NCBI GenBank assembly: GCA_046590575.1
Contig: JBKJUS010000107.1
Coordinates: 9,934 to 73,933, forward strand
Length of the DNA stretch: 64,000 bases
Origin: Mycobacteriales bacterium
GTDB taxonomy: Bacteria; Actinomycetota; Actinomycetes; BP-191
Reading direction: 5' to 3'
In this document: one piece after another, positions 10,776 through 42,526 of the stretch
Layout: the number at the start of each line of letters is the position of its first letter
How positions within the stretch are numbered: the stretch's first letter is position 1
The notes under the pieces: generated by a model
The model's database searches: none
What the model was told of the DNA's origin: nothing
Seen by the model: the letters and a program-made list of their open reading frames with translations, nothing else
Program-made: the position numbers and the translations under genes

Positions 10776-10799
10776 CGGCGCAAGGGCATACTGGCCGCC

Positions 10800-17958: not shown

Positions 17959-18039
17959 GCAGGCCTCCGGCGTACGACGGCGTCGTCGCCGTGGCACGAG
18001 TCTAGATGTTTGACACATCGACAGCATAGGGTCGCTGTC

Positions 18040-18555
18040 ATGGACTTCGACGAGCTGGCCGGCCGCCTAGAGGTGATGTTAGGCGAGCTGGACAGCCTGC
18101 CGCCGGATACCCGGGACATGGTGTTCGTCTTTCTTGATGACCTCGACACGCTGCACCGTCGGGCGGTGACCGGGCTCGCGACCGGGATCGAGCCGGCCGC
18201 GTTGGACGCCATGCGCGAGCGGGACCCGGCCGTCGCGTGGCTCTGCCACGCCTACGGGCTGGGGGTCGACGAGATCGAGGCGGCGGAGGCGGCGCTCGAG
18301 TCGATCCGGCCCTACATCGAGAGCCATGGGGGCAAGGTCGAGGTGCTCGGGGCAGCCGAAGGCGTTGTGCGCCTGCGGATGTCGGGCAGCTGTGCCGGCT
18401 GCTCGGCGTCGGCCGTGACACTCAGCCAGGGCATCGAAGAGGCTCTGCGTGAGCACTTCCCGGGCTATGCCGGCATGGAGGTGGCAGAAGACACCGCACC
18501 CAGTCATCCGCCGCCGGGCCCGACGCTGCTGCAGATCCAGCCGCGACCCACGTGA
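18040..18555 (+). CDS. NifU/Nfu-like Fe-S cluster assembly domain protein (hydrogenase-associated)
   Basis: The C-terminal half, HGGKVEVLGAAEGVVRLRMSGSCAGCSASAVTLSQGIEEALREHFPG, matches the Nfu domain CxxC signature. It is adjacent to a hydrogenase maturation protease gene. Confidence 0.7.
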   Translation: MDFDELAGRLEVMLGELDSLPPDTRDMVFVFLDDLDTLHRRAVTGLATGIEPAALDAMRERDPAVAWLCHAYGLGVDEIEAAEAALESIRPYIESHGGKVEVLGAAEGVVRLRMSGSCAGCSASAVTLSQGIEEALREHFPGYAGMEVAEDTAPSHPPPGPTLLQIQPRPT

Positions 18556-19111: not shown

Positions 19112-20350
19112 ATGACCAGCGAGGCGATGCCGCTGGACGACACGGTGACTCAGCTGCGCAGCGACCTGCTGCGCTTCCCTGCCGACCGTTACCCCGTGCA
19201 GCATGCGACCGCGCAGTTCCACCTCGGCGTGATGCTCACCAACGCCGCGCGAGTCGAGGAGGCGGACACGGCGCTGCAAGTTGCCGTCGAGCTCTTCGAC
19301 CCGGCCGTGCTCCCCGGGGAGCACGGCAAGGCGCTCAACGCGTGGGGTGCTGCGCTGCGCATGGCCGGCCGCTTCGACGAGGCAGCCGCCGCCTTTGCCT
19401 CGGCCGCGGCTGCGCTGAAGACTGCGGGGCTGACCCCCGAGCGCGGTGCCGCCCTGTTCAACCTGGGCCTGGTTTTCCGCGACCTCGGGCTCGACCACAA
19501 GGCCGCAGGGGCGTGGGCGAAGGCCCGAGACCACCTCGACCCTGAGGTCGTCCCGGCCCAGGCGGCCGCCGTCCTGCGCGAGCTGGGCGTGCTGCGGCTG
19601 CACCTGGGGGACTTCGACGGCGCGCACGACGTGCTGACGAAAGCCGTCGAGCTCGCCATGCGCGCCTCCGACGAGTTCGGCCTCGCTGCCGCGTCGAACG
19701 CGCTGGGACTAGTCGAGCTGGCCCGCGGCCGACCCGAGAATGCGGTGACCGCTTTTCGGGACGTGGTCGCGGCCCATCCGCGCTCCGTGCGACCTGACGG
19801 ATACGCGATGGGGAAGGCTAACCTCGCGCTGGCCCACGAGCAGGCAGGGGAGCCCGAGCGCGCTCGACTGGCCGCGCGGCAGGCGCTCGGCTCACCGGTC
19901 ATTCCCGACGCGGTGCGCCAGCAGGCGCTCGCCCTGCTCGGGCGGGTCGGCGACGCGCCCGGCGGGATCTTCGCGGCCCTCGACGACGAGCGGATGGACC
20001 GGTGGCCGGCGCTGGTGCGCGAGGAGCTAGTCCGCTGGGTCGATGCCGACGAGACGGAACGTGTCGCGGAGAGCGCTGCCTGGATCGAGGGCCAGCTGGT
20101 CCGCCGCGAGGCCGCGCCGGACCTCGTCGAGGCGTGGCTGAACGCGCTGCTCGAGCTCCCGCCAGAGGCGATGCGGGCCGTCATGCACAGCACGCTGACC
20201 GCACTGGCGGATCGCGAGGAGGAGCACATCGCTCGATTCCGATCGGTGGTGATGCGTACGACGGCCCGCTTCCACGTCCCGCAGATGCAACGGCTCGAGG
20301 ACAGTTTCAGCCGCATCAGCGAGGAGCTGGGCCAAGATCCATGGACCTAG
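19112..20350 (+). CDS. TPR-like helical repeat protein, hypothetical
   Basis: 412 aa, Ala/Leu-rich with repeated helix-turn patterns (ALNAWGAALRMAGRFDEAAAAF..., AALFNLGLVFRDLGLDHKAAGAW...). Confidence 0.5.
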   Translation: MTSEAMPLDDTVTQLRSDLLRFPADRYPVQHATAQFHLGVMLTNAARVEEADTALQVAVELFDPAVLPGEHGKALNAWGAALRMAGRFDEAAAAFASAAAALKTAGLTPERGAALFNLGLVFRDLGLDHKAAGAWAKARDHLDPEVVPAQAAAVLRELGVLRLHLGDFDGAHDVLTKAVELAMRASDEFGLAAASNALGLVELARGRPENAVTAFRDVVAAHPRSVRPDGYAMGKANLALAHEQAGEPERARLAARQALGSPVIPDAVRQQALALLGRVGDAPGGIFAALDDERMDRWPALVREELVRWVDADETERVAESAAWIEGQLVRREAAPDLVEAWLNALLELPPEAMRAVMHSTLTALADREEEHIARFRSVVMRTTARFHVPQMQRLEDSFSRISEELGQDPWT

Positions 20351-21859: not shown

Positions 21860-23761
21860 TCAGTCGGCGCCGCAGGAGCAGGTGTTGACCTCGCGCACGA
21901 CGGTGCCGTCACCGGTGTCGACGTGCGTCGTACACGGCATGCACGGGTCGAAGCTACGGATCGCCCGGAGCATGTCGATCGAGGTGAACTTGGACGGGTC
22001 GGAGACGTCTTCGATGATCGGCGTGTTCATCACGGCCTCCTCGTACGGACCTGGCTGGTCCCACGGGTCGCGCGGCGACGCGTTGATCGTCGAGGGTGTG
22101 CAGATCTGGTAGTTGGTGATCTTGCCCTTGTCCATAACCATGTGGTGCGTGAGCCAGCCGCGGCCGGCCCCCCACCAGCCGACGCTGATCTGCTCGTCCT
22201 TGGGGATGTGCTTGTCCAGCTCGTCCGGGGGAATCGCGGCGACCTGACGCTCGCCGGACTTGAACAGCTTGTAGGCCTCCAGCAGGCTGATCAGGCCGAC
22301 GAGCTGCGAGAACACGTAGTGGTAGGCCCGACCGCGGTTGCGCTCCAGGGCGTTCCAGTGCTCCGGGATGTGCCACTCGACCTCGAGCTCCGGCGTCAGA
22401 CCCTTGGGGATGAACATCCGCAGGCTGTGGCCGGTGGACTCGATGTAGTCGTTCTGCGGGATCTTCTGCGCCATGGCGGTCATGAACAGCCGGGCGTAGC
22501 AGCCGGCCTCCACCACCTCGCGGTCCCATCGCGGCGCGCAGGACCAGGTGTACTTGTCCTTCCAGGACCGCTCACCCGGCTTGGGGATCGTCACCTTGTT
22601 CCAGGGGTGGTACGGGCTGATCGGGTTGCCGAGCGGGTCGGTGGGGTAGCGGTCGCCCTTCCACTGCTCGTAGTAGGAGTGCTCGATGAACTCCTCCCAC
22701 CCGATGTTGATGTCAGTCAGGCGCGTGGTGCGCAGCTTGCCGTCGATGATGACGCCGGGAGTGGAGAAGCGCTTCTCACCCCACTCGTTGCAGTTCTCAT
22801 ACGTCGCGTCGTAGGCGTAGGGGTCGTCCCAGAAGCCCGGGTCGATGAGGTTGACCTTGCGGGCACCGACCTGGGTGTAGCGCTCGTCGCACTCGTAGAA
22901 GAAGTCCGGGATGTCGTTCCACACCGCGAGCATCCGCTGGGCGTAGTCGAAGAGCCGACCCAGCTTGGCCTGGTACTCGTTCAGGGTCTGCAGCGTGACG
23001 GTGGACGAAACGCCGCCGGGCACCACGGTCTGCGGGTGCGGGTACTTGCCGGCGAGAATCACGAACATCTCACGGGAGAAACGGGTGAACTCCAGGCCCT
23101 CGCGGTAGAGCGACCCGGTGAGCGGGTTGAGGGCGACCATCAGGTCGGCCATGGTCTTGAAGCCGTGCTGACGCACCCCCGGGCAGAGCCACTTCTCGGC
23201 CTTTGGCCAGAGCTCGGGGTTGACCGCCTTGATGACGGCCTCGGAGTAGTCAGGTCCGCAGAGCAGGTAGAGGTGCAGCGGGTTGTCGTAGCCCATCTCC
23301 GCGGCTTCCTGCATGTTGCGGATGACGGTGCCCAGTGGCGGCGGCTTAAGGCCCATCGCCATCTCGATGGCATAGGCCGCGGCGTGCGCGTGCACTCCGC
23401 CGCACACCCCGCACGCGCGGGATGATACGAAGATCGCGTCCCGCGGGTCACGGCCCATGAGGATGATCTCGTAGCCGCGGAAGAGCGTGGCCTGCGAGTG
23501 CGCGTCCAGATAGCGCTTGTTCTTCATGTCCGCGGTGACGTGGATGGCCAGCGCGCCGGCGACCCGGGTGACCGGGTCCATGTTGAGGTCCTTGATGTGG
23601 CCGTTGCGGGCCATCAGCTTCTGGATCTGCGCCTCGCGGTCGGCATCGGTCATGTCGACGGAAGGCTTGGCGATCTCTACGTCGTACGGATTGGGAATGC
23701 CTCCGCGCAAGGACGCCGAGCCGCTGGAGTCGAAGTCAACGAGCAGGTTCTTGAAGCACAT
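21860..23761 (-). CDS. [NiFe]-hydrogenase large subunit (Cys-type; no Tat partner; actinobacterial uptake type, group 1h/2a-like)
   Basis: The L1 motif is RACGVCGGVHAHAA. The C-terminal motif DPCMPCTTH is followed by a cleavable extension. Length 633 aa. The RBS gaaggagc is 9 nt upstream of the ATG. Confidence 0.9.
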   Translation of the reverse strand: MCFKNLLVDFDSSGSASLRGGIPNPYDVEIAKPSVDMTDADREAQIQKLMARNGHIKDLNMDPVTRVAGALAIHVTADMKNKRYLDAHSQATLFRGYEIILMGRDPRDAIFVSSRACGVCGGVHAHAAAYAIEMAMGLKPPPLGTVIRNMQEAAEMGYDNPLHLYLLCGPDYSEAVIKAVNPELWPKAEKWLCPGVRQHGFKTMADLMVALNPLTGSLYREGLEFTRFSREMFVILAGKYPHPQTVVPGGVSSTVTLQTLNEYQAKLGRLFDYAQRMLAVWNDIPDFFYECDERYTQVGARKVNLIDPGFWDDPYAYDATYENCNEWGEKRFSTPGVIIDGKLRTTRLTDINIGWEEFIEHSYYEQWKGDRYPTDPLGNPISPYHPWNKVTIPKPGERSWKDKYTWSCAPRWDREVVEAGCYARLFMTAMAQKIPQNDYIESTGHSLRMFIPKGLTPELEVEWHIPEHWNALERNRGRAYHYVFSQLVGLISLLEAYKLFKSGERQVAAIPPDELDKHIPKDEQISVGWWGAGRGWLTHHMVMDKGKITNYQICTPSTINASPRDPWDQPGPYEEAVMNTPIIEDVSDPSKFTSIDMLRAIRSFDPCMPCTTHVDTGDGTVVREVNTCSCGAD

Positions 23762-23789: not shown

Positions 23790-25154
23790 TCAGCGCTTAC
23801 CGGACGTCTTGGCTTGCTCGCTACGGATCTCCTTCGCCGACTTCACGCCGGCCTTGCCCCACTCGTTGCCGCGCTTCTTGCTGGTGTCGGTGCTGCGACG
23901 GAGTACGTCGTAGAACTTGTGCGTGATGTCGTTGAACTTGTTGTCTTCCACGGTCTCTCGAGACCAGCCACTGGAGGTCTCTCCGAGCTCATCCCAGCGC
24001 CGCTCGCGGTTGAGGTTGTTGTTGCTGAACTTGCGCAGGGGCCGAACGATGCCGCCCATCATCCGGGCCATCGTCGAGGAGACAAGCGAGCCGGGAGCAC
24101 TCTTGTAGAACGGCGTGAACTTGTCCGGGAAGCCGGGCATCGTGCAGCCGATGCAGGCAGCGCCGGCGTTCATGCAGCCGCCGACGTGGTTGATCGCGCC
24201 GCGAGAGGCGATGTTGCAGTTGACGACCGGCCCCCAGCACCCGATCTCGACGAGGCACTCTGGGTCGCCGAACTCCTTGGCGAAGGAGCCTTCCTCGTAG
24301 TACGCGCCGCGGACGCAGTGCCGGTGCACGGTCTCGCCGAACAGCCAGGCCGGCCGGCCGAGTGCGTCGAACTCCGGCAGCGGACCGAAGCCCTGCAGGA
24401 AGTAGCAGATCGCGGCGATCGTCTCGGTGATGTTGTCGCCGACCGGAGAGCAGCCGGGGATGTTGACCACCGGGACGCCGAACGAGCTGCGGTAGTCCTT
24501 GCCGAGGAAGTCCATGAGTCCCATGGACCCGGTCATGTTGCCCTCGGCGGCGGGGATGCCACCCCAGGTGGCGCACGTGCCGACCGCGATCGCGGCGGCT
24601 GCACCCGGGGCTAGGCGGGCGATCCACTCGCAGGTCGACACCTGGCGCAGTTCGCCATTGTGTCCCCACGGCTCTTCGCCTTGGCCGGAGAAGTAACCGC
24701 CGGGCGTGACATCCATCGCGAGCGTCTCGTCAGAGGCAGAGCCCTCGAGGATGATGACGTAGGGCGCGTTGAGCGTGCCCTTGATCGCGTCCTCGTGCGC
24801 TCGGAGGTAGTGCGCTCCGGACTCGATGTTGAGCACCGGGTGGTGGAGGATCACCCGGGGCAGCCCGGGGTGCGCGCCGAGCAGCAGGCCCTCGACCGAC
24901 GGGGAGGTGGCGCCGGTGGCGGCCACCGAGCAGCCGTCGCAGCTCATGCCGGCGAACCAGAACGCGTGCACAGCCTCAAGCGGGCCCAGCCGGCTACGCG
25001 GGCTCGCCTTCGCGATCGGCTCGAGGTAGGCCTCCATGGTGACCCGCGCGGGCATCCCGAAGTCGCCGAGCTCCTCGAAGTCGTGCCACTGGTCGACCGG
25101 ACCGAGCCGGTCGAGTAGCTCCTCGGCCGGCGTGCGACGGACCGTCACTGCCAT
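23790..25154 (-). CDS. [NiFe]-hydrogenase small subunit without twin-arginine signal, long C-terminal tail
   Basis: FWFAGMSCDGCSVA (CxxC), IPGCSP, and distal Fe-S Cys clusters CLVEIGCWGPVVNC...GGCMNAGAACIGC. There is no RRxFxK motif. Length 454 aa. Confidence 0.9.
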   Translation of the reverse strand: MAVTVRRTPAEELLDRLGPVDQWHDFEELGDFGMPARVTMEAYLEPIAKASPRSRLGPLEAVHAFWFAGMSCDGCSVAATGATSPSVEGLLLGAHPGLPRVILHHPVLNIESGAHYLRAHEDAIKGTLNAPYVIILEGSASDETLAMDVTPGGYFSGQGEEPWGHNGELRQVSTCEWIARLAPGAAAAIAVGTCATWGGIPAAEGNMTGSMGLMDFLGKDYRSSFGVPVVNIPGCSPVGDNITETIAAICYFLQGFGPLPEFDALGRPAWLFGETVHRHCVRGAYYEEGSFAKEFGDPECLVEIGCWGPVVNCNIASRGAINHVGGCMNAGAACIGCTMPGFPDKFTPFYKSAPGSLVSSTMARMMGGIVRPLRKFSNNNLNRERRWDELGETSSGWSRETVEDNKFNDITHKFYDVLRRSTDTSKKRGNEWGKAGVKSAKEIRSEQAKTSGKR

Positions 25155-25309
25155 GGGCGGAACCCCTTACGTATGTGACCGCTGCACCTACTGGCGAGGA
25201 CCTTACAACGCGCGGCTCGCATTGTGAACGTAGGTGGACTATCCGTTTCGACCGAACATGAGCGACACTGAGTGCCGGACACATCCACTGACCTCGGACG
25301 GAGTTTTGC

Positions 25310-25582
25310 ATGTGCCTCGGCATCCCCGGTGAGATCGTCGAGCTCGGGCCGGCAGACGAGCTCGCCATGGTCAATGTGGGTGGCGTGCGCCGGCAGGTGA
25401 ACGTTGGACTGCTGACGGGTGAGGACGCCGTCGGCGTCGGCGACTGGGTGCTGATCCACGTCGGCTTCGCGATGAGCAAGATCGACGAGGCCGAGGCCGC
25501 GTCGACATTGGAGTTCCTCCACAGCCTTGGGGCGACCTTCGACGAAGAGCTGGCCGCCCTGATTGAGAGCCAGATCGAATGA
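25310..25582 (+). CDS. hypC: hydrogenase maturation factor HypC/HupF
   Basis: Begins MCLGIPGEIVEL, the invariant MC(L/I)(G/A)(I/V)P start. Length 90 aa. Confidence 0.9.
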   Translation: MCLGIPGEIVELGPADELAMVNVGGVRRQVNVGLLTGEDAVGVGDWVLIHVGFAMSKIDEAEAASTLEFLHSLGATFDEELAALIESQIE

Positions 25583-26712
25583 AGTACGTCGACGACTTCA
25601 GGGACACCGGGACCGCGCGGGTGCTGCAAGCCCAGATCGCCAAGCTGGTTGATCCCGTCCGTCACTACAAAGTCATGGAGGTGTGCGGAGGACACACGCA
25701 CACCATCTACAAGCACGGCCTCGAAGATTTCCTGCCCGACAACGTCGAGCTGGTTCATGGCCCGGGCTGCCCGGTGTGCGTCATCCCGATGGGTCGGGTC
25801 GATGACGCCATCGCTCTCGCGCTGCGACCTGAGGTCACCCTCTGCTGCTTCGGCGACATGATCCGGGTGCCCGGCGGTGACGGCAGCCTGCTCGACGCCA
25901 AGGCGAGGGGGGCCGACGTACGCGTCGTGTACTCACCGCTTGACGCGCTGCGTATCGCCCGGTCCGAGCCGGACCGGCAGGTCGTCTTCCTCGCCATCGG
26001 GTTCGAGACCACGGCCCCGTCCACCGCGATGACTCTGCTGCGGGCCAGAGCGGAGGGCATCGGCAACTTCTCAGTGTTCTGCAACCACGTGACGATCGTT
26101 CCGCCGCTCAGAGCGATCCTCGAGTCGCCGGACCTGCGCCTGGACGGCTTTCTCGGCCCGGGCCACGTCGCCGTCGTCGTCGGCTGTCGGCCACTGGAGT
26201 TCGTGGCCACCGAGTGGCACAAGCCGATCGTCGTCACGGGTTTCGAGCCGTTGGACATCCTGCAGGCCGTGTACCTGGTCCTCAAGCAGGTGGCTGAAGG
26301 GCGTGCCGAGCTGGAGAACCAGTATTCGCGCGTGGTGCCCTACGCCGGCAACCCCCGGGCGCTGCAGGTGATGTCCGAGGTGTTCGAGCTGCGCCCGCAC
26401 TTCGAGTGGCGGGGGTTGGGCTTCATTGCGCGGTCGGCGCTGGCGCTGTCCGAGGTGTGGGCGGACTTCGACGCGGAGCAGCGCTTCGGCGTGCCCGGTG
26501 TGCGGGTGGCCGATCCGAAGGCCTGCCAGTGCGGCGAGGTGCTCAAGGGCGTCCTGAAGCCCTGGGAGTGCAAGGTGTTCGGCACGGCGTGCACTCCGGA
26601 GACGCCGATCGGCACCTGCATGGTGTCCTCCGAGGGAGCGTGCGCGGCGTACTACAACTTCGGCCGCTTCGCCCGCGAACGGATGCCCGTGCACGTCGAG
26701 ATCGGGCGATGA
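25579..26712 (+). CDS. hypD: hydrogenase maturation factor HypD
   Basis: Contains CGGHTH, GPGCPVC and IGFETTAP motifs. Length 377 aa. The start overlaps the hypC stop. Confidence 0.9.
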   Translation: MKYVDDFRDTGTARVLQAQIAKLVDPVRHYKVMEVCGGHTHTIYKHGLEDFLPDNVELVHGPGCPVCVIPMGRVDDAIALALRPEVTLCCFGDMIRVPGGDGSLLDAKARGADVRVVYSPLDALRIARSEPDRQVVFLAIGFETTAPSTAMTLLRARAEGIGNFSVFCNHVTIVPPLRAILESPDLRLDGFLGPGHVAVVVGCRPLEFVATEWHKPIVVTGFEPLDILQAVYLVLKQVAEGRAELENQYSRVVPYAGNPRALQVMSEVFELRPHFEWRGLGFIARSALALSEVWADFDAEQRFGVPGVRVADPKACQCGEVLKGVLKPWECKVFGTACTPETPIGTCMVSSEGACAAYYNFGRFARERMPVHVEIGR

Positions 26713-27782
26713 GCCGGACCGAGTCCGAGGTGCAGGCCGGCATCGAGCGCGCTCGTCGGGCGCGGCCCCGATTGCGTGACGAGCGCATCACGATGGCGCA
26801 CGGCGCGGGAGGCAAGGCCAGCGCGACGCTGATCGAGGCCCTCTTCCTGCCGGCGTTGCACAATCCTTCGCTCGCCATGCTGTCCGATGCTGGGCTGGTC
26901 GATGTGCCGGGCGGCACGCTGGCGATGTCGACCGACGCGTACGTCGTACGCCCGCTGCGTTTCCCAGGTGGCTCCATCGGCGAGCTCGCCGTCAATGGCA
27001 CGATCAACGACTTGGCTGTCTCTGGAGCCCGAGCACTCGCACTCTCGCTGGCCTTCGTGCTCGAAGAGGGCTTGGACATGGAGGTGCTCAGGGCAGAGGT
27101 GGCTGCCGTTGCTAGCGCCGCAGCAGCCGCGGGCGTGCCGGTTATCACCGGGGACACCAAGGTGGTCGAGCGCGGAAAGGCCGATGGGATGTACGTCGTC
27201 ACCACGGGTGTCGGCGTAGTCGAGCTCGCCGGCCTCGGTGCCACGGCGATGCGCCCGGGTGACAAGGTCCTCCTCTCCGGGGCGGTCGGTGACCACGGGA
27301 TCGCCATCCTGCTGGCCCGCGGTGACCTCGGTCTCGAGGCCGACGTCGAGTCCGACACGAAGCCACTGTGGTCGGCGGTGAAGACGCTGGGGGAGGCGGC
27401 TGGCTCGGGGTTGCGAGTCATGCGCGACGCGACCCGGGGCGGGGTTGCGACAGTCCTCAACGAGCTGGCCCAGGCGGCTGACCTCGGCGTCGTGGTCGAC
27501 GAAGGTGCCGTGCCCGTGCACACCGCCGTACGTGGGGCGTGCGAGCTGCTCGGCCTTGATCCACTCTACGTCGCCAACGAGGGCTTGTTGGTGGCTGTCG
27601 TCGCGCCCGGGGTCGCCGATGAGGCTCTGGCGGCACTGCAGGCGATGCCCCGCGGAGGGGAGGCAGCTGTGGTCGGAGAGATCGCCGCTGAGCCGCCTGG
27701 GATGGTGCTGGTCCGCACTGAGGTTGGTGGGCACCGAATCATGGACATGCTGATCGGCGACCCGCTGCCCCGGATCTGCTGA
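26709..27782 (+). CDS. hypE: hydrogenase maturation factor HypE (carbamoyl dehydratase)
   Basis: AIR-synthase-like fold ending in PRIC. The ATG overlaps the hypD stop (ATGA). The track ORF 26406..27782 has a spurious N-terminal extension. Confidence 0.9.
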   Translation: MSRTESEVQAGIERARRARPRLRDERITMAHGAGGKASATLIEALFLPALHNPSLAMLSDAGLVDVPGGTLAMSTDAYVVRPLRFPGGSIGELAVNGTINDLAVSGARALALSLAFVLEEGLDMEVLRAEVAAVASAAAAAGVPVITGDTKVVERGKADGMYVVTTGVGVVELAGLGATAMRPGDKVLLSGAVGDHGIAILLARGDLGLEADVESDTKPLWSAVKTLGEAAGSGLRVMRDATRGGVATVLNELAQAADLGVVVDEGAVPVHTAVRGACELLGLDPLYVANEGLLVAVVAPGVADEALAALQAMPRGGEAAVVGEIAAEPPGMVLVRTEVGGHRIMDMLIGDPLPRIC

Positions 27783-33158: not shown

Positions 33159-34964
33159 CTACGGCAGGGGGCCAGGAGCAGCCACCACCACGCGCTGGGA
33201 GTCGTCAATGCGGCGGGTGAGACCGAGTCGGTCGAGGTGCTCGAGCAGCGGGACCGCAACCCGACGTGTGGTGCCCAGCGCTTGGCGCGCCTGGCTCATG
33301 GAGAAGGGCTGAGGAAGCGCTGCAAGCGTCGGCAGTGCCGATTCGACGGCGTCCGGGAGAAGGTAGATCCCGTCCGTCAGCGCCAGCAACATCCCGTGCC
33401 GCACCGCCGTCGCAAGAACGGTTGCGGTCAATCCGAGTGAGTCGAGATCCGCGGCGGCCGGCGCGGCGTACGGCGTCTCCGCAAGACGTCGGGCAACCTG
33501 GCTCAGCGCGTCGCTTTGGCCGTCAGTGAAGCCAGGCGCGGCGCCGGCCCGGCGTACCAAGCCGCCGCTCGACTCCAGAGTCGGCACATCGGCGGCCAAC
33601 GCCGAAAGCAGCCTGGCGTCAGGGGCACCGACGGCTTGCCGTGCTGCCTCTGTCGGCAGACCACCGCGCAGCGGGTGCCGGTGTTCGTCATCTGCCACCG
33701 CGGCCACCAGTAAGTGCTGCCATTGCTGCCATTGCGCGGCGGAGATCAACCAGTTCCCCACCTCCACCGTGTCCTCGGGGGCTGGGTCGTCCTGGTGGAT
33801 CACTCCCCACGCCGCGAGCTCTTCCCGGCGGACCGCACCGCGTCGGCGCACCTCGCCAGCCGGGTCCGGTGCGCCGCTCATGCCCTGCAGAGACGTGGCG
33901 CGCCTCGCCGCCCCGCCGCGCCGTGACAGCGGCTCCGGCGCGGCGTCGAGAACGACCACTCCGGCGACCACCCGCTGCTCTCCTGGGTCACGCAGCAGGG
34001 CCCGATCGCCGGGCTGAAGCGGTAGTGCCGCTGTGAGGTGCAGCCGGGCGGTGTCATCGCCGAGTCGGCGTACGTCGACGGCCACAGCGGCGGATCCGAC
34101 GTGCATCAGCAGGGTGGCCGGCAAGCGGGCCGAGCCTTCCGACCCAGCGTCCAGCCGCACGTCGACCAGGTCGGTGGTTCGCCAGCCGCCGACGGTCACC
34201 AGCGCATTGCCCCGGCGTACGTCGGAGACATCGACACCTCGCAGGTTGACCGCGACGCGAGCTACGGCCTCGACCTGGTCGGCATGACGTTTGAGGCTCT
34301 CCAGCCCGCGGACCCGTACCTGGAGGCCCTGCGGGGAGATCTGCAGCGTGTCTCCCACGCGCAGGGTTCCCGCGCCGAGCGTGCCGGTCACCACCGTGCC
34401 GCTGCCCCGGATGGTGAACGCCCGGTCGACCCACAAGCGAACGCGCGCAGCAGGGTCCGGCTCCGGGAGATCACCTACTAGACGATCGAGCGCACTCCGC
34501 AGGTCGTCGACACCTGCACCGGTGACTCCGCTCACCGCTACCGCTTCGACATCACCGAGAGCCGTGGCCCGGAGGTGCTCCAACGCTTCCGCCATGGCCG
34601 GGCCGGGGCTGGCGAGGTCGCAGCGGGTGATCGCGAGCACGCCATGCCGGACCTGAAGTGCGTCCAGCGCTGCCAAGTGCTCGACCGACTGCCGACTCCA
34701 ACCTTCGTCAGCAGCCACGACGAAGAGGACCGCCGGCGCCGGCCCGACGCCGGCGAGCATGTTGGGCACGAAGCGCTGGTGCCCCGGAACGTCGACGAAG
34801 GCGATCTCCACTCCGGACGGCAACGTGGTCCAGCCGAATCCGAGGTCGATCGTCATGCCCCGCCGGCGTTCCTCCGCCCAGCGGTCAGGCTCCATGCCGG
34901 TGAGCGCGCGGACCAACGTCGACTTGCCGTGATCCACATGGCCTGCTGTCGCGACGACGTGCAA
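33159..34964 (-). CDS. selB: selenocysteine-specific translation elongation factor SelB
   Basis: MHVVATAGHVDHGKSTLVRALTGMEPDRWAEERRRGMTIDLGF...FVDVPGHQRF is collinear with E. coli SelB (GHVDHGKTTL...RGMTIDLGY...DVPGHEKF). Length 601 aa with a long C-terminal SECIS-binding extension. Confidence 0.9.
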   Translation of the reverse strand: MHVVATAGHVDHGKSTLVRALTGMEPDRWAEERRRGMTIDLGFGWTTLPSGVEIAFVDVPGHQRFVPNMLAGVGPAPAVLFVVAADEGWSRQSVEHLAALDALQVRHGVLAITRCDLASPGPAMAEALEHLRATALGDVEAVAVSGVTGAGVDDLRSALDRLVGDLPEPDPAARVRLWVDRAFTIRGSGTVVTGTLGAGTLRVGDTLQISPQGLQVRVRGLESLKRHADQVEAVARVAVNLRGVDVSDVRRGNALVTVGGWRTTDLVDVRLDAGSEGSARLPATLLMHVGSAAVAVDVRRLGDDTARLHLTAALPLQPGDRALLRDPGEQRVVAGVVVLDAAPEPLSRRGGAARRATSLQGMSGAPDPAGEVRRRGAVRREELAAWGVIHQDDPAPEDTVEVGNWLISAAQWQQWQHLLVAAVADDEHRHPLRGGLPTEAARQAVGAPDARLLSALAADVPTLESSGGLVRRAGAAPGFTDGQSDALSQVARRLAETPYAAPAAADLDSLGLTATVLATAVRHGMLLALTDGIYLLPDAVESALPTLAALPQPFSMSQARQALGTTRRVAVPLLEHLDRLGLTRRIDDSQRVVVAAPGPLP

Positions 34965-34967
34965 ACG

Positions 34968-36269
34968 TCAGCCCGCCGCTCCGGCAACAGCCAACACCGC
35001 GTCGCAGAGCTCGGCATCACGCGCAGCGGGAACGCAGCGGAGGTCGAGCAGACAACGGTCGCGCTCGACCCGGCCGACGACACAGGGGTCGCCGAGCCGC
35101 AGCGGCTCGGCAAAGCCAGGAGGCAGGGTGACCGCGGCGCCGGGCAGCACGAGACCGGGCGCGCCGCCGCCCCCGACCGCACCGTCGGAGTCCTCCACGG
35201 TGGCGTCGACACCGCGGCTCACCAAGTCGGCGACCATGGCCGCTGCCCGGAGACGCAACCCATCCTGGCTCTCCGCGAGCGCCGATTGGGTCGGCGTAGC
35301 CGGCCCGCGGATAGTTGCTTCGAGAGCTGCGAGGGTGAGCTTGTCGACACGCAGCGCGCGGGCCAGCGGATGCCGTCGTAGTCGTTCAACCAGGTCCGCG
35401 CGGCCGAGGATCAGACCGGCCTGCGGTCCGCCGAGCAGCTTGTCGCCGCTGCACGTCACCAAGCCAGCACCGGCCTCAAGCGCAGAGGTCGCATCCGGCT
35501 CCGCCGGCAGGATGGGATCGGGGTGGAGCAACCCAGAGCCGATGTCGACGACGAGCGGTGGGCCGAGCGCGGCGAGCGCAGCCACGCTGACCGAGCTGGT
35601 GTAGCCCACGACGGCAAAGTTCGACGGGTGAATCTTCACGATGCACCCGGTGGATTCGTTGACCGCGTCGGCGTAGTCCTCAGCCGAGGTCCGGTTGGTA
35701 GTGCCCACCTCACGGATCCGCGCTCCGGTCGAGCAGATCAGCTCCGGCAGGCGGAACCCGTCCCCGATCTCCACCAGCTCACCCCGGCTGACGACAACCT
35801 CGCGTTCGGCAGCCAGGGCGGTGACCGCAAGGACAAGGGCTGCTGCTCCGTTGTTGACGGTGAGGGCTGCCTCTGCGGCGGGCACTGCCGAGAGCAGCGC
35901 TGACGTCGTGCCGCGTCCCCGCGACGCGCGACGTCCGGTGGCCACGTCGTACTCAAGGTCGACGTAGCCCGCGGCCATCGTGACGGCGGCCACCGCCTGG
36001 TCCGAGAGAGCGGCCCGGCCAAGATTGGTGTGCAGCACGACGCCGGTTGCGTTCAGCACCGGGCGCATCCGCACCGGCACGCCGGCCAGGGCGCGGGCGA
36101 CCTCGTCGGCGACCTGATCGGGTGCGATCTCTCCGGCGCGGGCGCGGGCCACGGTATCGATCACGACCCGTTTTGCTTCCGTCCGGTTCACGCGCTCGAG
36201 CGCGGCGAGCACGCGGGGCTCGGCGAGCACGGAGTCGACACGTGGCAGCTGACGCCTGCTGTCTGTCAT
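34968..36269 (-). CDS. selA: L-seryl-tRNA(Sec) selenium transferase SelA
   Basis: LPRVDSVL, NATGVVLHTNLGRA and the PLP-fold region match SelA. The stop abuts the selB start, and the start is the ATG at 36269. Confidence 0.9.
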   Translation of the reverse strand: MTDSRRQLPRVDSVLAEPRVLAALERVNRTEAKRVVIDTVARARAGEIAPDQVADEVARALAGVPVRMRPVLNATGVVLHTNLGRAALSDQAVAAVTMAAGYVDLEYDVATGRRASRGRGTTSALLSAVPAAEAALTVNNGAAALVLAVTALAAEREVVVSRGELVEIGDGFRLPELICSTGARIREVGTTNRTSAEDYADAVNESTGCIVKIHPSNFAVVGYTSSVSVAALAALGPPLVVDIGSGLLHPDPILPAEPDATSALEAGAGLVTCSGDKLLGGPQAGLILGRADLVERLRRHPLARALRVDKLTLAALEATIRGPATPTQSALAESQDGLRLRAAAMVADLVSRGVDATVEDSDGAVGGGGAPGLVLPGAAVTLPPGFAEPLRLGDPCVVGRVERDRCLLDLRCVPAARDAELCDAVLAVAGAAG

Positions 36270-36567
36270 GAGCTCCCTCGGCCACACCGGTTTTGAAGCC
36301 TGACCTTACCGATTTCGGCGACCCTGCTGAGCGGCGCAGCCTTGGCCGTGACGGCGGAACTCGGACAGGAAACCTCCACCGTTGGGCGGACGCTTCCGCG
36401 CCGGGCGCGATGCATCCTGTGCTGATGCCGTCCTCGGGACTCTCGCCAGTCACCCTGTCCGCATCCACGCTCCGGACGCATCCATCGGAGACCCCGTGAA
36501 GCTTCCTGTTCGTTCCGCACTCGTCGTCGCCGCGGCTTCCGCTCTGGTGTTCCGTAGTCAGAGCATG

Positions 36568-36663
36568 TGGCGGAGGCGGACGGGAATCGAACCCGCCTGA
36601 CCGAGATCCTCGGCCACACCGGTTTTGAAGACCGGGAGGGCCACCAGGCACCTGTACGCCTCC
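36568..36663 (-). tRNA. selC: tRNA-Sec (selC), anticodon UCA, 96 nt, CCA encoded
   Basis: The reverse complement reads GGAGGCGTACAGGTGCCTGGTGGCCCTCCCGGTCTTCAAAACCGGTGTGGCCGAGGATCTCGGTCAGGCGGGTTCGATTCCCGTCCGCCTCCGCCA. The anticodon loop CUUCAAA carries UCA, there is a long variable arm, the GTTCGATTC T-loop is present, and it has an extended acceptor stem. It lies between selA and selD. Confidence 0.85.
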
Positions 36664-36725: not shown

Positions 36726-37739
36726 ATGACGGTGACGGAGAGCGCGAAAACGTATCGGCTGACGCAGTTTGCCCACGGGGGTGGCTGTGCCTGCAAGATC
36801 CCGCCCGGCGAGCTCGAGCAGATCGTCGCCGGTCTGGTCGGACTTGATCCGTCCGACGGGACCGCGGAGCTGCTCGTCGGTCTGGACGGGGGTGACGACG
36901 CTGCAGCGGTGCGCATCGATGCGAAGACCGCGGTGCTGTCGACGGCCGACTTCTTCACCCCCGTCGTCGACGACGCCTACGACTGGGGCCGGATCGCTGC
37001 CGCCAACGCGTTGTCGGACATCTACGCGATGGGCGGCACCCCTCTGCTCGCCATCAACTTGCTCGCGTGGCCGCGAGACGTCCTGCCCCTGGAGCTGGCG
37101 ACCGAAGTGCTCAGAGGCGGTTTGGATGTTGCCCGCGAGGCACGCTGCCACGTGGCCGGCGGACACAGCATCGACGATCCCGAGCCGAAGTACGGCATGG
37201 CCGTCACCGGGGTCGCCCATCCCGATCGCCTGTTCCGCAATGACGCGGGACGCCCGGGCGACGTGCTCTCGTTGACCAAGCCGCTGGGCATCGGCGTGCT
37301 TAACAGCCGGCACAAGCAGACGGGGGAGGTTTTTCCCCAGGCCATCGACGCTATGACTTCTTTGAACCGCGATGCGGCAGGTCACGCGCTGGCTGCCGGT
37401 GTCCGTTGCGCGACGGATGTGACTGGCTTCGGCCTGCTGGGCCATCTGTACAAACTCGCGCGCGCCAGTGGAGTCACCGCCGAGATCGACTCCAGCGCTG
37501 TGCCCTATCTCGACGGCGCAGTGGCCGCGGCGCGCGACGGCTTTGTTAGTGGTGGGACGCGCCGCAACCTCGACTGGGTCGACCCGCACGTCGACTTCGG
37601 CACCATGGATGAGGTGCAGCGGCTGCTCTTGGCCGACGCGCAGACGTCAGGGGGCCTCCTCGTCGCCGGTGAGGTGCCGGGCGCGCCGATCATCGGACGC
37701 CTGGTCGCGCGCGACGGAGTGACCGTTCGGGTCCGGTGA
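36726..37739 (+). CDS. selD: selenide, water dikinase SelD (selenophosphate synthetase), Cys-type
   Basis: MTVTESAKTYRLTQFAHGGGCACKIPPG... is collinear with E. coli SelD (RLTQYSHGAGCGCKISP). The active-site residue is Cys, not Sec. Confidence 0.9.
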   Translation: MTVTESAKTYRLTQFAHGGGCACKIPPGELEQIVAGLVGLDPSDGTAELLVGLDGGDDAAAVRIDAKTAVLSTADFFTPVVDDAYDWGRIAAANALSDIYAMGGTPLLAINLLAWPRDVLPLELATEVLRGGLDVAREARCHVAGGHSIDDPEPKYGMAVTGVAHPDRLFRNDAGRPGDVLSLTKPLGIGVLNSRHKQTGEVFPQAIDAMTSLNRDAAGHALAAGVRCATDVTGFGLLGHLYKLARASGVTAEIDSSAVPYLDGAVAAARDGFVSGGTRRNLDWVDPHVDFGTMDEVQRLLLADAQTSGGLLVAGEVPGAPIIGRLVARDGVTVRVR

Positions 37740-37858: not shown

Positions 37859-38107
37859 GTGGTGCTGTGGTGGATCGGCAACGCCGTCCTACTGCTGGTT
37901 GTGGTCCCGCTCGTCGTCATTCTTGCGGACCGACTGCTCAAGCCAGTGCGCGAGATCCGCGCTTACGCCGACGACATCCTCGACCACGGGGTCAGCCTGA
38001 CCAGCGCCCTCGACTCCGTGCCTAAGCTGGTGACGACCACTGAGCTGACGGGCGTCGCTAAGGGCCTCGTCGGTCGCTACGGTGCGGCGCTGCAAAAACT
38101 GCTGTGA
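37859..38107 (+). CDS. small single-pass membrane protein, member 1 of a 5-gene paralogous family
   Basis: 82 aa with an N-terminal TM (WWIGNAVLLLVVVPLVVILA) and a ~50-aa helical tail similar to the following ORFs. Confidence 0.5.
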   Translation: MVLWWIGNAVLLLVVVPLVVILADRLLKPVREIRAYADDILDHGVSLTSALDSVPKLVTTTELTGVAKGLVGRYGAALQKLL

Positions 38108-38150: not shown

Positions 38151-38429
38151 ATGAGCGCGGCCGCGATTACCACCCTGGTCGGCGTCGGACTGCTCGCCGG
38201 CGCACTGGTGCTCTACCTCAGCATCGTCGCCTACCACCTGTCGAAGGTGAACTTCGCTCTCGGCACCGTCGTCATTGGGGTGCGGGCGATTGCCAACCAG
38301 ACCCAGCCGGTCGAGGCCGTCGTCGGCAGCATCGCCGGCGACGTGGCCGCAATCGACGACGCGCTCAAGGCCTTGGTAGTGCTCGCGACCACTCCGAAGC
38401 CGGGCGTTCGCGCCCGGGCATCCCGCTGA
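38151..38429 (+). CDS. small single-pass membrane protein, family member 2
   Basis: The internal ATG has the RBS aagggacacg. The sequence is MSAAAITTLVGVGLLAGALVLYLSIVAY... followed by a helical tail. Confidence 0.5.
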   Translation: MSAAAITTLVGVGLLAGALVLYLSIVAYHLSKVNFALGTVVIGVRAIANQTQPVEAVVGSIAGDVAAIDDALKALVVLATTPKPGVRARASR

Positions 38430-38454
38430 CCGAACGCTGACGAGAGGACGCCGC

Positions 38455-38631
38455 ATGGCTTACAAGTGGGGTTGACGGGATTCCGACCACACCTGCAGGT
38501 GGCAGGCCAAGGGCGAGACCGAAGAAGAGTTGTTGGCGAAGATCGCTGAGCACGTGAAGAAGAAGCACGCCGTTCACACCGTGTCGGACACCATCGTCAA
38601 CTTCGTGGTTCAGGACGTGAAGAAGACGTGA
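38455..38631 (+). CDS. DUF1059-like mini-protein with in-frame TGA at codon 7 (38473..38475); candidate selenoprotein
   Basis: The RBS gagagga is 6 nt upstream of the ATG. The translation is MAYKWG-U-RDSDHTCRWQAKGETEEELLAKIAEHVKKKHAVHTVSDTIVNFVVQDVKKT. It resembles the DUF1059 layout (Mxx-aromatic-xCxD...C...TEEEL...HAKxxHG) with the TGA at the first conserved Cys. A GC hairpin cacc-tgca-ggtg starts about 14 nt after the TGA. Not in the ORF track because it is under the size cutoff. Confidence 0.5.
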
Positions 38632-38652: not shown

Positions 38653-38922
38653 ATGGATGACCTTGTTGCGGTCAGCCTCAGGGGCTGGTACATCGGATTC
38701 GCCATCGCCGGTGTCGCGATCGCGGTGGTCGTCGTGCTCGTCGCGATCATCATGACGATGGCTCGTCGGATCGCGATCCAGGCGGCGGCCATCACCGAGG
38801 GGCTCGACCAGGCGCGGGTGCACACGCTTGCGCTGTGGGATGTCGCGAAGGTCAACGAAGGCCTGACGAGCATCGTGGGTAGCGCCGCAGCCGCGCGAGG
38901 GGTCTTGGAGGCAAAGCTGTGA
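38653..38922 (+). CDS. small single-pass membrane protein, family member 3
   Basis: 89 aa, TM at IGFAIAGVAIAVVVVLVAIIM. The stop overlaps the next start. Confidence 0.5.
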   Translation: MDDLVAVSLRGWYIGFAIAGVAIAVVVVLVAIIMTMARRIAIQAAAITEGLDQARVHTLALWDVAKVNEGLTSIVGSAAAARGVLEAKL

Positions 38923-39200
38923 ACGTCGCGCTGGCCGACAACGAGATCACCATCTGGTGGGTGACCCTTGGCCTTGGTCTTACCGTCGCGCTCGTGGTCA
39001 TCATCCTGCTCTCACTGCTGACGGGTCTGGTGCGCGACATCGACCACAACGTCGACGACGTGTGGCAGACCGCGACCCGCGTCGCCCGTAACACCACGAC
39101 GGTGTGGATACTTGGTCAGACAGCCGGCCTATCGGCGGCGTTGCGCGACGAGGTCGCCCAGCATGCCGCTCTCTTCGAGGCTAACAAGAGGCGACGATGA
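38919..39200 (+). CDS. small single-pass membrane protein, family member 4
   Basis: 93 aa, TM at IWWVTLGLGLTVALVVIILLSLL. ATGA overlap with the next gene. Confidence 0.5.
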   Translation: MNVALADNEITIWWVTLGLGLTVALVVIILLSLLTGLVRDIDHNVDDVWQTATRVARNTTTVWILGQTAGLSAALRDEVAQHAALFEANKRRR

Positions 39201-39451
39201 CACTGCGCATCACCTTGTCGGTGCTGGAGATCGTTCTGGTCGTCGCGATCCTCGCCTTCTTCCTCATCCGCATCTCTCGCCTGCTCCGGCGCATCTCGAT
39301 CACGCTCGCAAGGGTGACGTGGGGGGTGCGCACCGTGGAGAAGCAGTGCTTCCAGATCGGCCCGGCTGCCGACCGCATCAACGCCAATCTGGCCACTGCT
39401 GCGGCCGGTCTCGAGAGCGCCGCAGTGATGGCCGAGCGTCTCGGTCGCTGA
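39197..39451 (+). CDS. small single-pass membrane protein, family member 5
   Basis: 84 aa, TM at LSVLEIVLVVAILAFFLI. Confidence 0.5.
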   Translation: MTLRITLSVLEIVLVVAILAFFLIRISRLLRRISITLARVTWGVRTVEKQCFQIGPAADRINANLATAAAGLESAAVMAERLGR

Positions 39452-40624: not shown

Positions 40625-41242
40625 CTAGCGGGCGCAGGCCTGCCCGCGAACCGCTGCGCTGCAGTCGATGGAGTTGGCGTGCTCGTTGACGTTGGTGGCT
40701 TGGGCCAGGATGTTGCCCGTGTCGGTCTTGATTCCGCGCACCAGAGAGATGACGACGTCCGCGCGTTGGTTGATCCCCTGCACCCCGTTGTTGATCGATG
40801 TGACGACGGGTGACAGGGACTGGAACGAGCCGAGGATGGACGACGCATTGCGGTTGATCGCCGACGCGGTGGAGTTGATCTGCATCACAGTCGAATTGAT
40901 CGCGGAGGCATTGCCGAGGATCGCCTCGACGTTGCCGTCGATCGCCGTTGCCGCGTCGATGATCTGACCCGCTTGGGCTGAAAGGGGCTCGGCTGCTGCC
41001 AGGATCTCAGCAGTCAACCGGTCTGTGTCGTCGAGCACCGCAGTGCCCGCAGTCTCGATGTCTACTGGGTCCACCGACGTGACGATGTCCTTCACCCGGT
41101 CGTCGATCTGCGCAGCGGCGATCGTCGTCCGGGTCAACGTCGTGACGGCGAAGAGGGCGAAGGCGACCACCACAGTCATGTGCGTGGCAATGATGCCGTC
41201 GTCATTGCGCACGACCCGCAGGCGAGAGGTCATCGATTGCAC
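40625..41242 (-). CDS. single-pass membrane protein with heptad-like xINSTAx repeats and C-terminal Cys pair, paralog 1 of 3
   Basis: TM at VVVAFALFAVTTL. Repeats include AINSTV, INSTASAINRNASSILG and GINQRA. The C-terminus is SIDCSAAVRGQACAR. An alternative start at 41233 would give an ATGA overlap. Confidence 0.5.
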   Translation of the reverse strand: MQSMTSRLRVVRNDDGIIATHMTVVVAFALFAVTTLTRTTIAAAQIDDRVKDIVTSVDPVDIETAGTAVLDDTDRLTAEILAAAEPLSAQAGQIIDAATAIDGNVEAILGNASAINSTVMQINSTASAINRNASSILGSFQSLSPVVTSINNGVQGINQRADVVISLVRGIKTDTGNILAQATNVNEHANSIDCSAAVRGQACAR

Positions 41243-41904
41243 GAGGGCCCCCCGCGGACGGCAGCCGAGTTGCAGATGCTCTCGAGGTGGACGTTGACGT
41301 CCTTCAGCCTGACCAGGATGTTCGCCGTGTCCTGCCGGGCCGGCGCCAGCACGCTGTTGGCGACCGCGACTCGACGGTGGATGTTCTGCACGCCCAGCTT
41401 GTCAGCGGGGTCGTCGGCGTCGATCAGGGTGCCCCGGATGCCCGTGGCCAGCCTGAGCACGGAGACGAGAACGCTGGAGGTGTCCTTCAGCGACCCGTCG
41501 GTGTCCTGCAGGGAGCCGTCGGTGTTCTTCAGCGAGCTGTCGACCGAACTGAGGCGGCCGTTGATCGAGCCAAGAGCGCCGACGATCTGGTCAGCCTGAC
41601 CGGAGATCGGCTTTAGCGCCGTGTCGATGCCGGTCAGGTTCTTGTTCGCGATCTCGATCTGGTCCGGGAGCGTCTTGACGTTGCCGCCGGCACCGGTCAC
41701 CGAACGGTCAGCGACGCCGAGGTTCTTATTGATCGAGGCCAGTGAGTTGGTGATGACCACGAGGTAGACGACGACCACCAGGGTGACCAGTGTCAGCAGG
41801 ACGACCCAGATCTTGATCCAGCGGTCGTAATAGCTCTTGTCAGCGTTGCGGGCGGCCGGTCGGGCGGTGAGCGAACGCTCGTCAGGTGCAGTCGCAATAG
41901 GCAT
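41230..41904 (-). CDS. single-pass membrane protein with repeats and C-terminal Cys pair, paralog 2
   Basis: The internal ATG at 41904 has the RBS agggggac. TM at IWVVLLTLVTLVVVVYLVVI. The C-terminus is SICNSAAVRGGPSCNR. Confidence 0.5.
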   Translation of the reverse strand: MPIATAPDERSLTARPAARNADKSYYDRWIKIWVVLLTLVTLVVVVYLVVITNSLASINKNLGVADRSVTGAGGNVKTLPDQIEIANKNLTGIDTALKPISGQADQIVGALGSINGRLSSVDSSLKNTDGSLQDTDGSLKDTSSVLVSVLRLATGIRGTLIDADDPADKLGVQNIHRRVAVANSVLAPARQDTANILVRLKDVNVHLESICNSAAVRGGPSCNR

Positions 41905-41914
41905 CAGGGTCCCC

Positions 41915-42526
41915 CTAGGCGCAATCGCCGTCGGCGCCACGGGCGCCGCCGAGTCCACGGTCGATGCAGGCGGCCTTCACGTGGGCGCGCTGTGCCTCGG
42001 TGACCAAATTGGTCGTATCGCTGCGAATCAGCTTGGCAATGGCGATGGTGCGGTCGAGGTTGAGGTTGATGAGCTCGACTCCACGGTTGATCCGTTTGGC
42101 GACGTCGAGGATCTGCGCTGCCTCGTTGTTGATCCCGCCGGCCGTGCTGTTAATCGCTCCGGCCGTGCTGTTAATGCTGCGGGCGGTGGAGTTGATGCTG
42201 CCGGCGCTGCCATTGATCGTCCCGGCGAGACCGTTGACCGAGCCGGCTAGGCGGACGATCTCCGCTAGCTTGCCCTGCAGTGGTGAGGCTGAGTCGAGGA
42301 TTGATGTCGCGAGCGCGTTGGTCTTCTCCAGCTGGATGATCGCGTCGGTCGACTCGTTGATGCCGCGCCCGGTGCGGGCGATCCGCTCCGCCTTCTCGTT
42401 GATGCGCTCCGCAGTCCAGGCCGTGCGCTGCAGCAGGCCGGCGGCTGCCACCACCACGACCAGCGTCGCGATCAGCCCGAGGACCGCAAGTCCGGAGTCA
42501 CCTTGAGGACGTGGTCGCGATCGCAT
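41915..42526 (-). CDS. single-pass membrane protein with SINSTAx heptad repeats and C-terminal Cys pair, paralog 3
   Basis: TM at LAVLGLIATLVVVVAAAGLL. Repeats are GTINGSAGSINSTARSINSTAGAINSTAGGINNEAA. The C-terminus is AACIDRGLGGARGADGDCA. Confidence 0.55.
   Translation of the reverse strand: MRSRPRPQGDSGLAVLGLIATLVVVVAAAGLLQRTAWTAERINEKAERIARTGRGINESTDAIIQLEKTNALATSILDSASPLQGKLAEIVRLAGSVNGLAGTINGSAGSINSTARSINSTAGAINSTAGGINNEAAQILDVAKRINRGVELINLNLDRTIAIAKLIRSDTTNLVTEAQRAHVKAACIDRGLGGARGADGDCA

Follow-up and report, generated by a model that had tools for sequence, protein, structure and literature searches.

We report that a 64,000-nucleotide stretch of a Mycobacteriales genome (contig JBKJUS010000107.1, hereafter the window) contains a 58-codon gene of the DUF1059 family, at 38455-38631, in which an in-frame UGA very likely encodes selenocysteine (Sec). 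The firmest element of this reading, in which we place high confidence, is that the UGA would be a conserved sense codon, specifying Sec; comparison with related loci places the coding sequence on both sides of it under purifying selection. A selenocysteine insertion sequence (SECIS) hairpin downstream of the codon and the presence of a Sec machinery beside the gene are well supported.

The frame opens with MAYKWG, meets the TGA at 38473-38475, continues as RDSDHTC through 51 sense codons and closes at a second TGA (38629-38631, KKT-TGA). An earlier, sequence-only reading of this DNA had described a ribosome-binding site, an ATG, MAYKWG-TGA and an open frame to a stop, and all of these stand at the coordinates given there; its core sequence TEEEL...HAKxxHG, on the other hand, has to be corrected to TEEELLAKIAEHVKKKH. 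In homologous loci a GGAGG occupies the position of the GAGAGGA in the window. The base composition of the frame is that of a genuine gene, with G+C of 0.55/0.31/0.88 at codon positions 1/2/3 in surroundings of 68% G+C. The first in-frame ATG, GTG or TTG 3' of the UGA is the TTG at 38530 (codon 26), and since codons 8-25 contain no start codon, residues 8-25 could be produced only by decoding the UGA.

With Cys placed at the UGA, the translated product matched Pfam DUF1059 (PF06348) over residues 4-56 with 47.8 bits (E = 1.8e-12), well above the gathering score of 21.1 bits; with X at the UGA, or with residues 8-58 only, the score was still 41 bits. The family assignment made in the sequence-only reading is thereby upheld. 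A profile search returned 657 DUF1059 proteins, and every one of the 120 full-length homologues listed among them has Cys in the UGA column, following an N-terminus of the form M-A-Y-x-F-x-C or, in a second subgroup, x-K-S-F-x-C. Across a 55-sequence alignment only four columns are invariant, C7, C14, H33 and H38. The UGA thus aligns with an invariant Cys, and the second Cys that had been noticed about 7 residues further on is itself one of the invariant positions. The resulting set of candidate ligands is spaced Cys/Sec-x6-Cys-x18-His-x4-His, and some source records of the homologues carry the name 'predicted small metal-binding protein'. Among the Cys homologues P0028 is the closest, at 63% identity to the window protein.

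Other searches were less productive. Residues 8-58, run against the complete set of 1.8 billion representative proteins, matched 13, three of them (P0004, P0010, P0012) unusually short. The best match, P0001, is a protein of 591 amino acids (aa) made of about eight tandem copies of a ~55-residue unit (…NCYRSNTFQWSANQNTKEELLQKQYLSMISKPKHQRGIV…); the match is limited to residues 5-39 of the query, and P0001 may be either a relative built of repeats or a match by chance. A word-indexed homologue search with the read-through protein gave no match, NCBIfam holds no model for the protein (one sub-threshold, unrelated match and no selenoprotein model match), and a scan of genome contigs found only three distant Cys-type loci, from Nitrososphaerales. 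A classical C2H2 zinc finger was considered and rejected: the protein does not combine the C-x2-4-C-x12-H-x3-5-H spacing with a zf-C2H2 profile match.

Evidence that the UGA is read comes from its recurrence. A profile of the part after the UGA recovered ~85 clusters (90% identity) of open reading frames (ORFs) of 28-33 aa and a few of 41-51 aa; those of 28-33 aa have a common internal start, M-x-K-V-[A/S]-[D/E]-H-V.... We took the DNA of nine truncated-ORF clusters (P0004, P0010, P0133, P0137, P0149, P0156, P0165, P0177, P0196), originating from ENA, JGI, NCBI and Logan assemblies of different samples. In each of the nine loci (ORFs of 28-51 aa) the frame extends upstream through just one TGA, which falls in column 7 and follows [M/V]-A-Y-x-F-[R/A/G] (V-P-Q-F-R in locus L067) and a GGAGG ribosome-binding site. 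The nine Sec-form proteins are 35-67% identical to the window protein, and together with the window they make ten independent lineages with TGA at this column; named relatives are metagenome-assembled genomes of Actinomycetota. The sequence-only reading had allowed that homologues might terminate at the UGA. They show no accidental stop, as nine other lineages have the TGA in this column and retain conserved coding sequence on both sides.

A divergent Sec subgroup (L005, 285-461; L081, 1238-1414) reads MAY[QE]FR-TGA-VDAGATC...; a GTG directly after the TGA leads gene callers to give 51-aa proteins here. The 46-aa match P0013 proved to be a truncated variant in which the upstream TGA form is absent, and a degenerate DNA pattern with TGA, scanned over metagenome contigs, gave 46 matches, all of them chance.

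Selection on the stretch behind the UGA points the same way. Over 25 sequence pairs from eight distinct main-group genes, codons 8-26 have a mean non-synonymous rate (dN) of 0.23 and a synonymous rate (dS) of 1.14, a ratio of 0.20, and constraint is weaker in codons 27-58 (dN/dS 0.42). By this measure codons 8-26 are the most strongly protein-constrained part of the gene and hence appear to be translated. Such constraint excludes a pseudogene: that a TGC or TGT Cys codon has mutated to TGA, or was misread in sequencing, and that nothing useful is made is extremely improbable, for although one base change turns TGC into TGA, the exact 33-aa truncated ORF of the window is not on record elsewhere and relatives are publicly annotated as 29-33 aa fragments, the same column holds TGA in nine lineages this divergent from different samples and sequencing projects, their starts, Shine-Dalgarno sites and frames are intact, dN/dS is 0.20 3' of the UGA, and a sel locus adjoins the gene.

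The same constraint makes it very unlikely that the UGA is a true stop, separating a 6-residue leader peptide from a 33-residue protein begun at the TTG at 38530 (ATG in relatives). Gene callers predict exactly this arrangement in the ~85 clusters, and in many relatives the internal position is indeed ATG. Yet codons 8-25 fit the DUF1059 profile even without the N-terminus (41 bits) and include the invariant Cys14, purifying selection is stronger in codons 8-26 than in the C-terminal half, and only two of the four invariant residues would remain in the 33-residue fragment. Moreover, the internal start in the window has no Shine-Dalgarno sequence before it, and the internal Met falls on an ordinary Leu/Met/Val position of the Cys forms.

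If the UGA is decoded as Sec, an RNA element should lie close behind it. RNAalifold, applied to ten distinct main-group sequences, found one local hairpin 3' of the UGA that pairs in all ten (50/50 cells). In the window it overlaps codons 13-18 (T-C-R-W-Q-A); the stem begins 16 nt after the UGA and the loop follows at 21 nt. The sequence-only reading had also noted a GC hairpin, correctly, but had put it about 14 nt downstream. What it saw was probably the alternative CCAC-A-C...G-GUGG with loop CUGCA, of which L053 and L058 retain only 3 pairs; we rejected that hairpin since CCUGC/GCAGG is kept in all sequences. In L053 the stem is CGUGC/GCGCG, with one double compensatory change (C:G to G:C) and one change from U:A to U:G, and sliding the 3' arm by 1-3 columns lowers pairing to 24-68%. 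Main-group stems are of 5-7 bp and their loops are AGGUG, AGUUG or CGUUG (N-G-[G/U]-U-G, 5 nt). With flanks, energies are -8.0 to -11.3 kcal/mol, and -8.8 kcal/mol in the window (38488-38517).

The published bacterial SECIS (bSECIS) model has a loop of 3-9 nt, an upper stem of at least 4 bp, a G at loop position 1 or 2 with G/U next to it on the 3' side, a spacing of 16-37 nt and an energy of -7.5 kcal/mol or lower (PMC13188914). The window hairpin, taken with its flanks, agrees with this model, so that the SECIS search suggested earlier has yielded a conserved hairpin of the published type. The hairpin codons spell C-[R/S]-W-[Q/R]-[G/A], a peptide that occurs in 10/10 main-group Sec forms and in 0/124 full-length Cys forms (nearest, C-GWRG), as expected if RNA structure constrains the coding sequence only where the UGA is recoded. 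The other UGAs defined by homology, two in the window and one in L067, are likewise followed by hairpins of this geometry, their loops lying 19-21 nt downstream. As background, 34 of the 1466 TGA triplets in the window (2.3%) have such a hairpin, by criteria that were chosen after seeing the data. We consider the hairpin likely to be the SECIS of this gene.

The L005/L081 subgroup has a different hairpin, GAGCGA-CCUG-UCGCUU, shifted ~6 nt 5' and with one compensatory change (A:U to C:G), which may be a second SECIS type of the same family.

A complete sel set (selB, selA, tRNA-Sec and selD; Table 1) lies 0.7-5 kb upstream of the DUF1059 gene. The selD product is of the Cys type (FAHGGGCACKIPP) and hence not itself a selenoprotein. 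Formate dehydrogenase, which usually anchors Sec use, is absent from the 64-kb window. No tRNA-Sec was found in the flanks of the other Sec-form loci, which are short and hence uninformative on this point. We propose that the ribosome would start at ATG 38455 and that at codon 7 SelB would bring Sec-tRNA(Sec), placed by the G+C-rich hairpin with its AGGUG loop 21 nt downstream; translation would then run on to the TGA at 38629 and make the 58-residue DUF1059 protein.

Recoding of the UGA by other means, through a near-cognate Trp or Cys tRNA or through Cys carried on tRNA-Sec, with a hairpin that only stimulates read-through, has little probability in our view. Structure-stimulated read-through is known in principle, and the evidence for decoding is sequence-based. 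Against it, the position is that of an invariant Cys and not of a Trp, selA, selB, selC and selD stand beside the gene, the loop sequence of the hairpin and its distance from the UGA are those of SelB-dependent elements, and TGA also serves as the ordinary stop of genes in the window, among them selD, those for the hydrogenase subunits and the DUF1059 gene itself.

As to what the product does, we examined an AlphaFold2 model of P0028 (predicted local distance difference test score 91.5), with strands at 3-6 and 17-20 and helices at 7-10, 23-38 and 45-53; it had no significant match among solved structures. The predicted fold is accordingly beta-beta-alpha-alpha. Four invariant residues on a strand-strand-helix scaffold suggest a single four-ligand metal site. 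Most likely, judging from their conservation, the four would bind one metal ion with Sec as one of the ligands, Sec7 taking the place of the first member of the Cys7, Cys14, His33, His38 set. For Sec7 itself as a metal ligand we see somewhat better than even chances.

The main functional rival is a selenoprotein in which Sec7 and Cys14 form a redox-active selenenylsulfide (U-x6-C) pair and no metal site exists. Most predicted prokaryotic selenoproteins are redox proteins (PMC13188914), and the pair sits on a short loop-helix segment, which would suit such a role. We nevertheless think it unlikely: the two His are as invariant as the two Cys, which is typical of a four-ligand metal site and would go unexplained by a dithiol mechanism, there is neither a thioredoxin-like fold nor CxxC/UxxC spacing, and the neighbouring genes serve metal-centre assembly (CooC-type ATPases, HypC, HypD, HypE and a NifU-like protein).

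These neighbours bear on a metal-handling reading of the selenoprotein. The DUF1059 gene lies ~13 kb from a [NiFe]-hydrogenase and hyp cluster, the two blocks being separated by a kinase/phosphatase/vWA block and the sel genes. The hydrogenase large subunit uses Cys (DPCMPCTTH) and not Sec; a [NiFeSe] hydrogenase, considered on account of 47 codons with G+C-rich third positions after the large-subunit stop, was rejected on this motif and on a tail that is not protein-like. The sequence-only reading had counted the DUF1059 UGA as the third UGA-at-Cys case in the window, which is consistent with what we find, the other two lying at 8419 and 11112 in genes of CooC-type P-loop ATPases. In the first (8104-8844, +; MKLAVVGKGGSGKTT...), the TGA at 8419-8421 falls in the metal-binding motif, in the context ...RIQNPEPGCP-TGA-CGLSPEQLL...VVADLEAGIGTL, with coding composition on both sides, and is followed by a 7-bp hairpin (CCCGAGC-AGUU-GCUCGGG) with its loop 19 nt downstream. 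We regard this gene as a candidate for a further selenoprotein family, absent from the 2026 catalogue. In the second (10797-11573, +), the TGA at 11112-11114 reads ...AERAGSG-TGA-TGAAHVTVRDF..., where a Cys paralogue (12106-12849, -) has NACVCCGSH, and the hairpin GUCAC-GGUCC-GUGAC lies 20 nt downstream. Locus L067 has a similar CooC-type gene (1303-2067; ...QAGAG-TGA-TCSSHAAV...), annotated as pieces of 103 and 143 aa, with the hairpin GCUGC-CGUGC-GCAGC; the DUF1059-Sec gene of L067 lies ~0.9 kb downstream of its end. The same-frame TGA junctions at 46507, 59506, 12108, 16106 and 47350, also looked at, are ordinary stops with new genes behind them.

The genes for Ni/Fe centre assembly, together with the UGA in the CxC motif of two CooC paralogues, suggest a metal-handling accessory role. 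In our model the selenoprotein gene, immediately downstream of selD, would share a transcript with genes for small single-helix membrane proteins, and its product would act as a metal- or electron-handling accessory of the [NiFe]-hydrogenase/hyp system; we put this service to the hydrogenase forward tentatively, as a possibility somewhat short of even. More speculatively, and with a small chance of being right, the DUF1059 selenoprotein and the two Sec CooC-type ATPases might form one selenium-dependent pathway of metal delivery or protection, the metal probably being nickel, that works for a high-affinity, oxygen-tolerant [NiFe]-hydrogenase of aerobic soil Actinomycetota. If so, selenium would be used in the assembly line of the hydrogenase and not in its active site, which would explain the sel operon between the hydrogenase genes and the DUF1059 genes.

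Several observations weigh against our interpretation and should be kept in mind. In two homologues, each from a single contig, column 7 is Gly (P0129) or Leu (P0005). P0129 (MAYQFRGRDADDACRWRG...) retains the hairpin peptide of the Sec form, 'CRWRG', and its Gly therefore looks like a recent change from TGA to GGA or a sequencing error; P0005 begins MPAQFRLKDSTGTCKWQ.... Covariation in the stem is weak since L053 alone differs there, and 41 of 500 column shuffles reach the same score. The bare window hairpin has only 5 bp and -6.6 kcal/mol, and the first 68 nt fold no more stably than shuffled sequence (z = -0.07). Neither at gathering thresholds nor at E up to 10 did any SECIS family of Rfam match, although a match is not expected. 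L005 and L081 lack the main hairpin, and the CCUG loop of their own breaks the rule of a G at loop position 1 or 2. In L055 and L058 the Sec gene is not beside membrane-protein, hydrogenase or sel genes. Finally, metal binding is deduced only from the four invariant residues and the source annotation, with no related solved structure.

The gene very probably represents a new selenoprotein family, as far as can be told from sequence comparison; since the family is unlisted and the recoding is canonical for bacteria, it would be new as a family and not as a mechanism. A review of May 2026 tabulates 119 prokaryotic selenoprotein families with domain identifiers, and DUF1059/PF06348 is absent from its Table 1 (PMC13188914). 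Our literature search found no paper that joins DUF1059, PF06348 or COG5466 with selenoproteins, and the DUF1059 family has no known function and no solved structure. Like Cys-form DUF1059 proteins, the window protein has a core of 56-60 aa, the four invariant positions, the MAYxFxC start and up to 63% identity (P0028); unlike them, it has the first position encoded by UGA and residues 14-18 fixed as C-[R/S]-W-[Q/R]-[G/A], owing to the same codons also encoding the hairpin.

The closest mechanistic parallel is Escherichia coli fdhF, which likewise has an in-frame UGA and, directly downstream and inside the ORF, a hairpin with a small loop of G then G/U; in fdhF it is SelB that reads this element. 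The loop distance of 21 nt (model 16-37 nt) and the presence of selA, selB, selC and selD agree with recoding of this type. The apical sequence of fdhF, UGCAGGUCUGCA, has the string UGCAGGU in common with the window hairpin. Compared with fdhF, the stem at this locus is shorter, at 5-7 bp; we saw neither a conserved lower stem nor a bulged U, and reading by SelB is predicted.

Sec is an actual or possible metal ligand in FdhA (Mo/W) and in the large subunit of [NiFeSe] hydrogenase (Ni), and selenoproteins with predicted Sec ligands include MbdU, YHS-domain, CopZ-like and SaoB/SaoC proteins (PMC13188914). In these, as at the DUF1059 locus, Sec replaces a Cys of a conserved set of actual or putative metal ligands; they belong to other folds and families, however, and the spacing found here, Sec-x6-Cys-x18-His-x4-His, is not CU, UxxC or UxxU.

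A further parallel is genomic. Ray et al. [quoted passage not shown] The window has the full accessory set and adjacent genes for the small and large subunits, spread over ~30 kb, a likeness by gene content alone. It differs from the described clusters in having the DUF1059 block apart from the hydrogenase, and no BirA homologue was identified in the window.

Our results would thus add a family to the prokaryotic selenoproteome that is mis-annotated in public metagenomes as ~85 clusters of 29-33 aa fragments. They also offer a first functional clue for the uncharacterised DUF1059, namely that the residue in column 7 would be important enough for an upgrade to Sec. The hairpins point to a local SECIS consensus for these Actinomycetota (stem of 5-7 bp, N-G-[G/U]-U-N loop, 19-21 nt from the UGA) that is usable for finding more selenoproteins in their genomes, and the gene neighbourhood would tie selenium use to accessory genes of atmospheric-hydrogen-oxidising bacteria, where selenium had not previously been considered.

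Table 1. Features of the window that bear on the proposed selenoprotein gene (positions count from the first letter of the window).
Feature	Position	Strand	Basis or remarks
DUF1059 gene, putative selenoprotein; 58 sense codons (M1...U7...C14...H33...H38...T58) and TGA stop	38455..38631	+	Pfam; G+C at third codon positions; tblastn across the stop; dN/dS
Shine-Dalgarno-like GAGAGGA	38442..38448	+	6 nt 5' of the ATG at 38455; read from sequence
In-frame UGA, proposed Sec codon 7	38473..38475	+	column of the invariant first Cys
Proposed SECIS apical hairpin	38492..38506	+	stem CCUGC/GCAGG (38492-38496, 38502-38506), loop AGGUG 38497-38501; RNAalifold
Cys14 codon, second invariant ligand candidate	38494..38496	+	homologue alignment
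His33 (38551-38553) and His38 (38566-38568), invariant H-x4-H on the long helix	38551..38568	+	alignment and model
selB, Sec-specific elongation factor	33159..34964	-	Pfam GTP_EFTU, SelB-wing_3; Beta-barrel_SelB below cut-off
selA, selenocysteine synthase	34968..36287	-	Pfam SelA, 326 bits
selC, tRNA-Sec, anticodon UCA	36568..36663	-	ARAGORN; Rfam RF01852, 78.6 bits
selD, selenophosphate synthetase, Cys type (GGGCACK)	36726..37739	+	Pfam AIRS, AIRS_C; start codon inferred
82-aa single-helix membrane protein, conserved partner	37859..38107	+	69.5% identity to L053 neighbour, 57% to L067 neighbour
~92-aa single-helix membrane protein, conserved partner	38151..38429	+	66% identity to L053, 50% to L067
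Three small single-helix membrane-protein genes	38653-38922, 38919-39200, 39197-39451	+	65-77% identity to L053 array
Hydrogenase island	7343-28762	mixed	contents in the rows below
Six CooC-type ATPase paralogues	7343-8107, 8104-8844, 10797-11573, 12106-12849, 13583-14395, 14357-15268		
NifU-like protein	17890-18555		
TPR protein	19112-20350		
[NiFe] large subunit	21860-23761	-	
[NiFe] small subunit	23790-25154	-	
HypC, HypD, HypE	25292-27782		
SIS-domain protein	within 7343-28762		

Around the DUF1059 gene, the array of small membrane-protein genes that had been noticed earlier is borne out. On the strand of selD there follow in order the 82-aa and ~92-aa membrane proteins, DUF1059, three small membrane proteins and a 377-aa protein, with gaps of 21-25 nt or overlaps from selD onward and no terminator-like site on the + strand before 39491. 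All five small proteins begin with one hydrophobic helix, and none has a Pfam match above the gathering score; the second has an ORF listed from 38082, and alignment led us to choose its ATG, at 38151. The last three genes (38653-39451) probably form one operon, as they overlap or abut. The array is syntenic in L053/L054, where the neighbours are 65-77% identical, and in L067 genes of 82-87 and 113-118 aa, with 50-57% identity, precede the DUF1059-Sec gene; the neighbours in L055-57 and L058-66 are unrelated to the window array.

Three paralogous proteins of 203-242 aa, without a Pfam family, are encoded at 40625-42526 (-) in the window and, at 43-49% identity, beside the DUF1059-Sec gene of L067 (3406-5840). 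Each has a single membrane helix at its N-terminus, a long helical stretch of repetitive sequence (INST/INGS repeats) and two Cys residues paired at its C-terminus.

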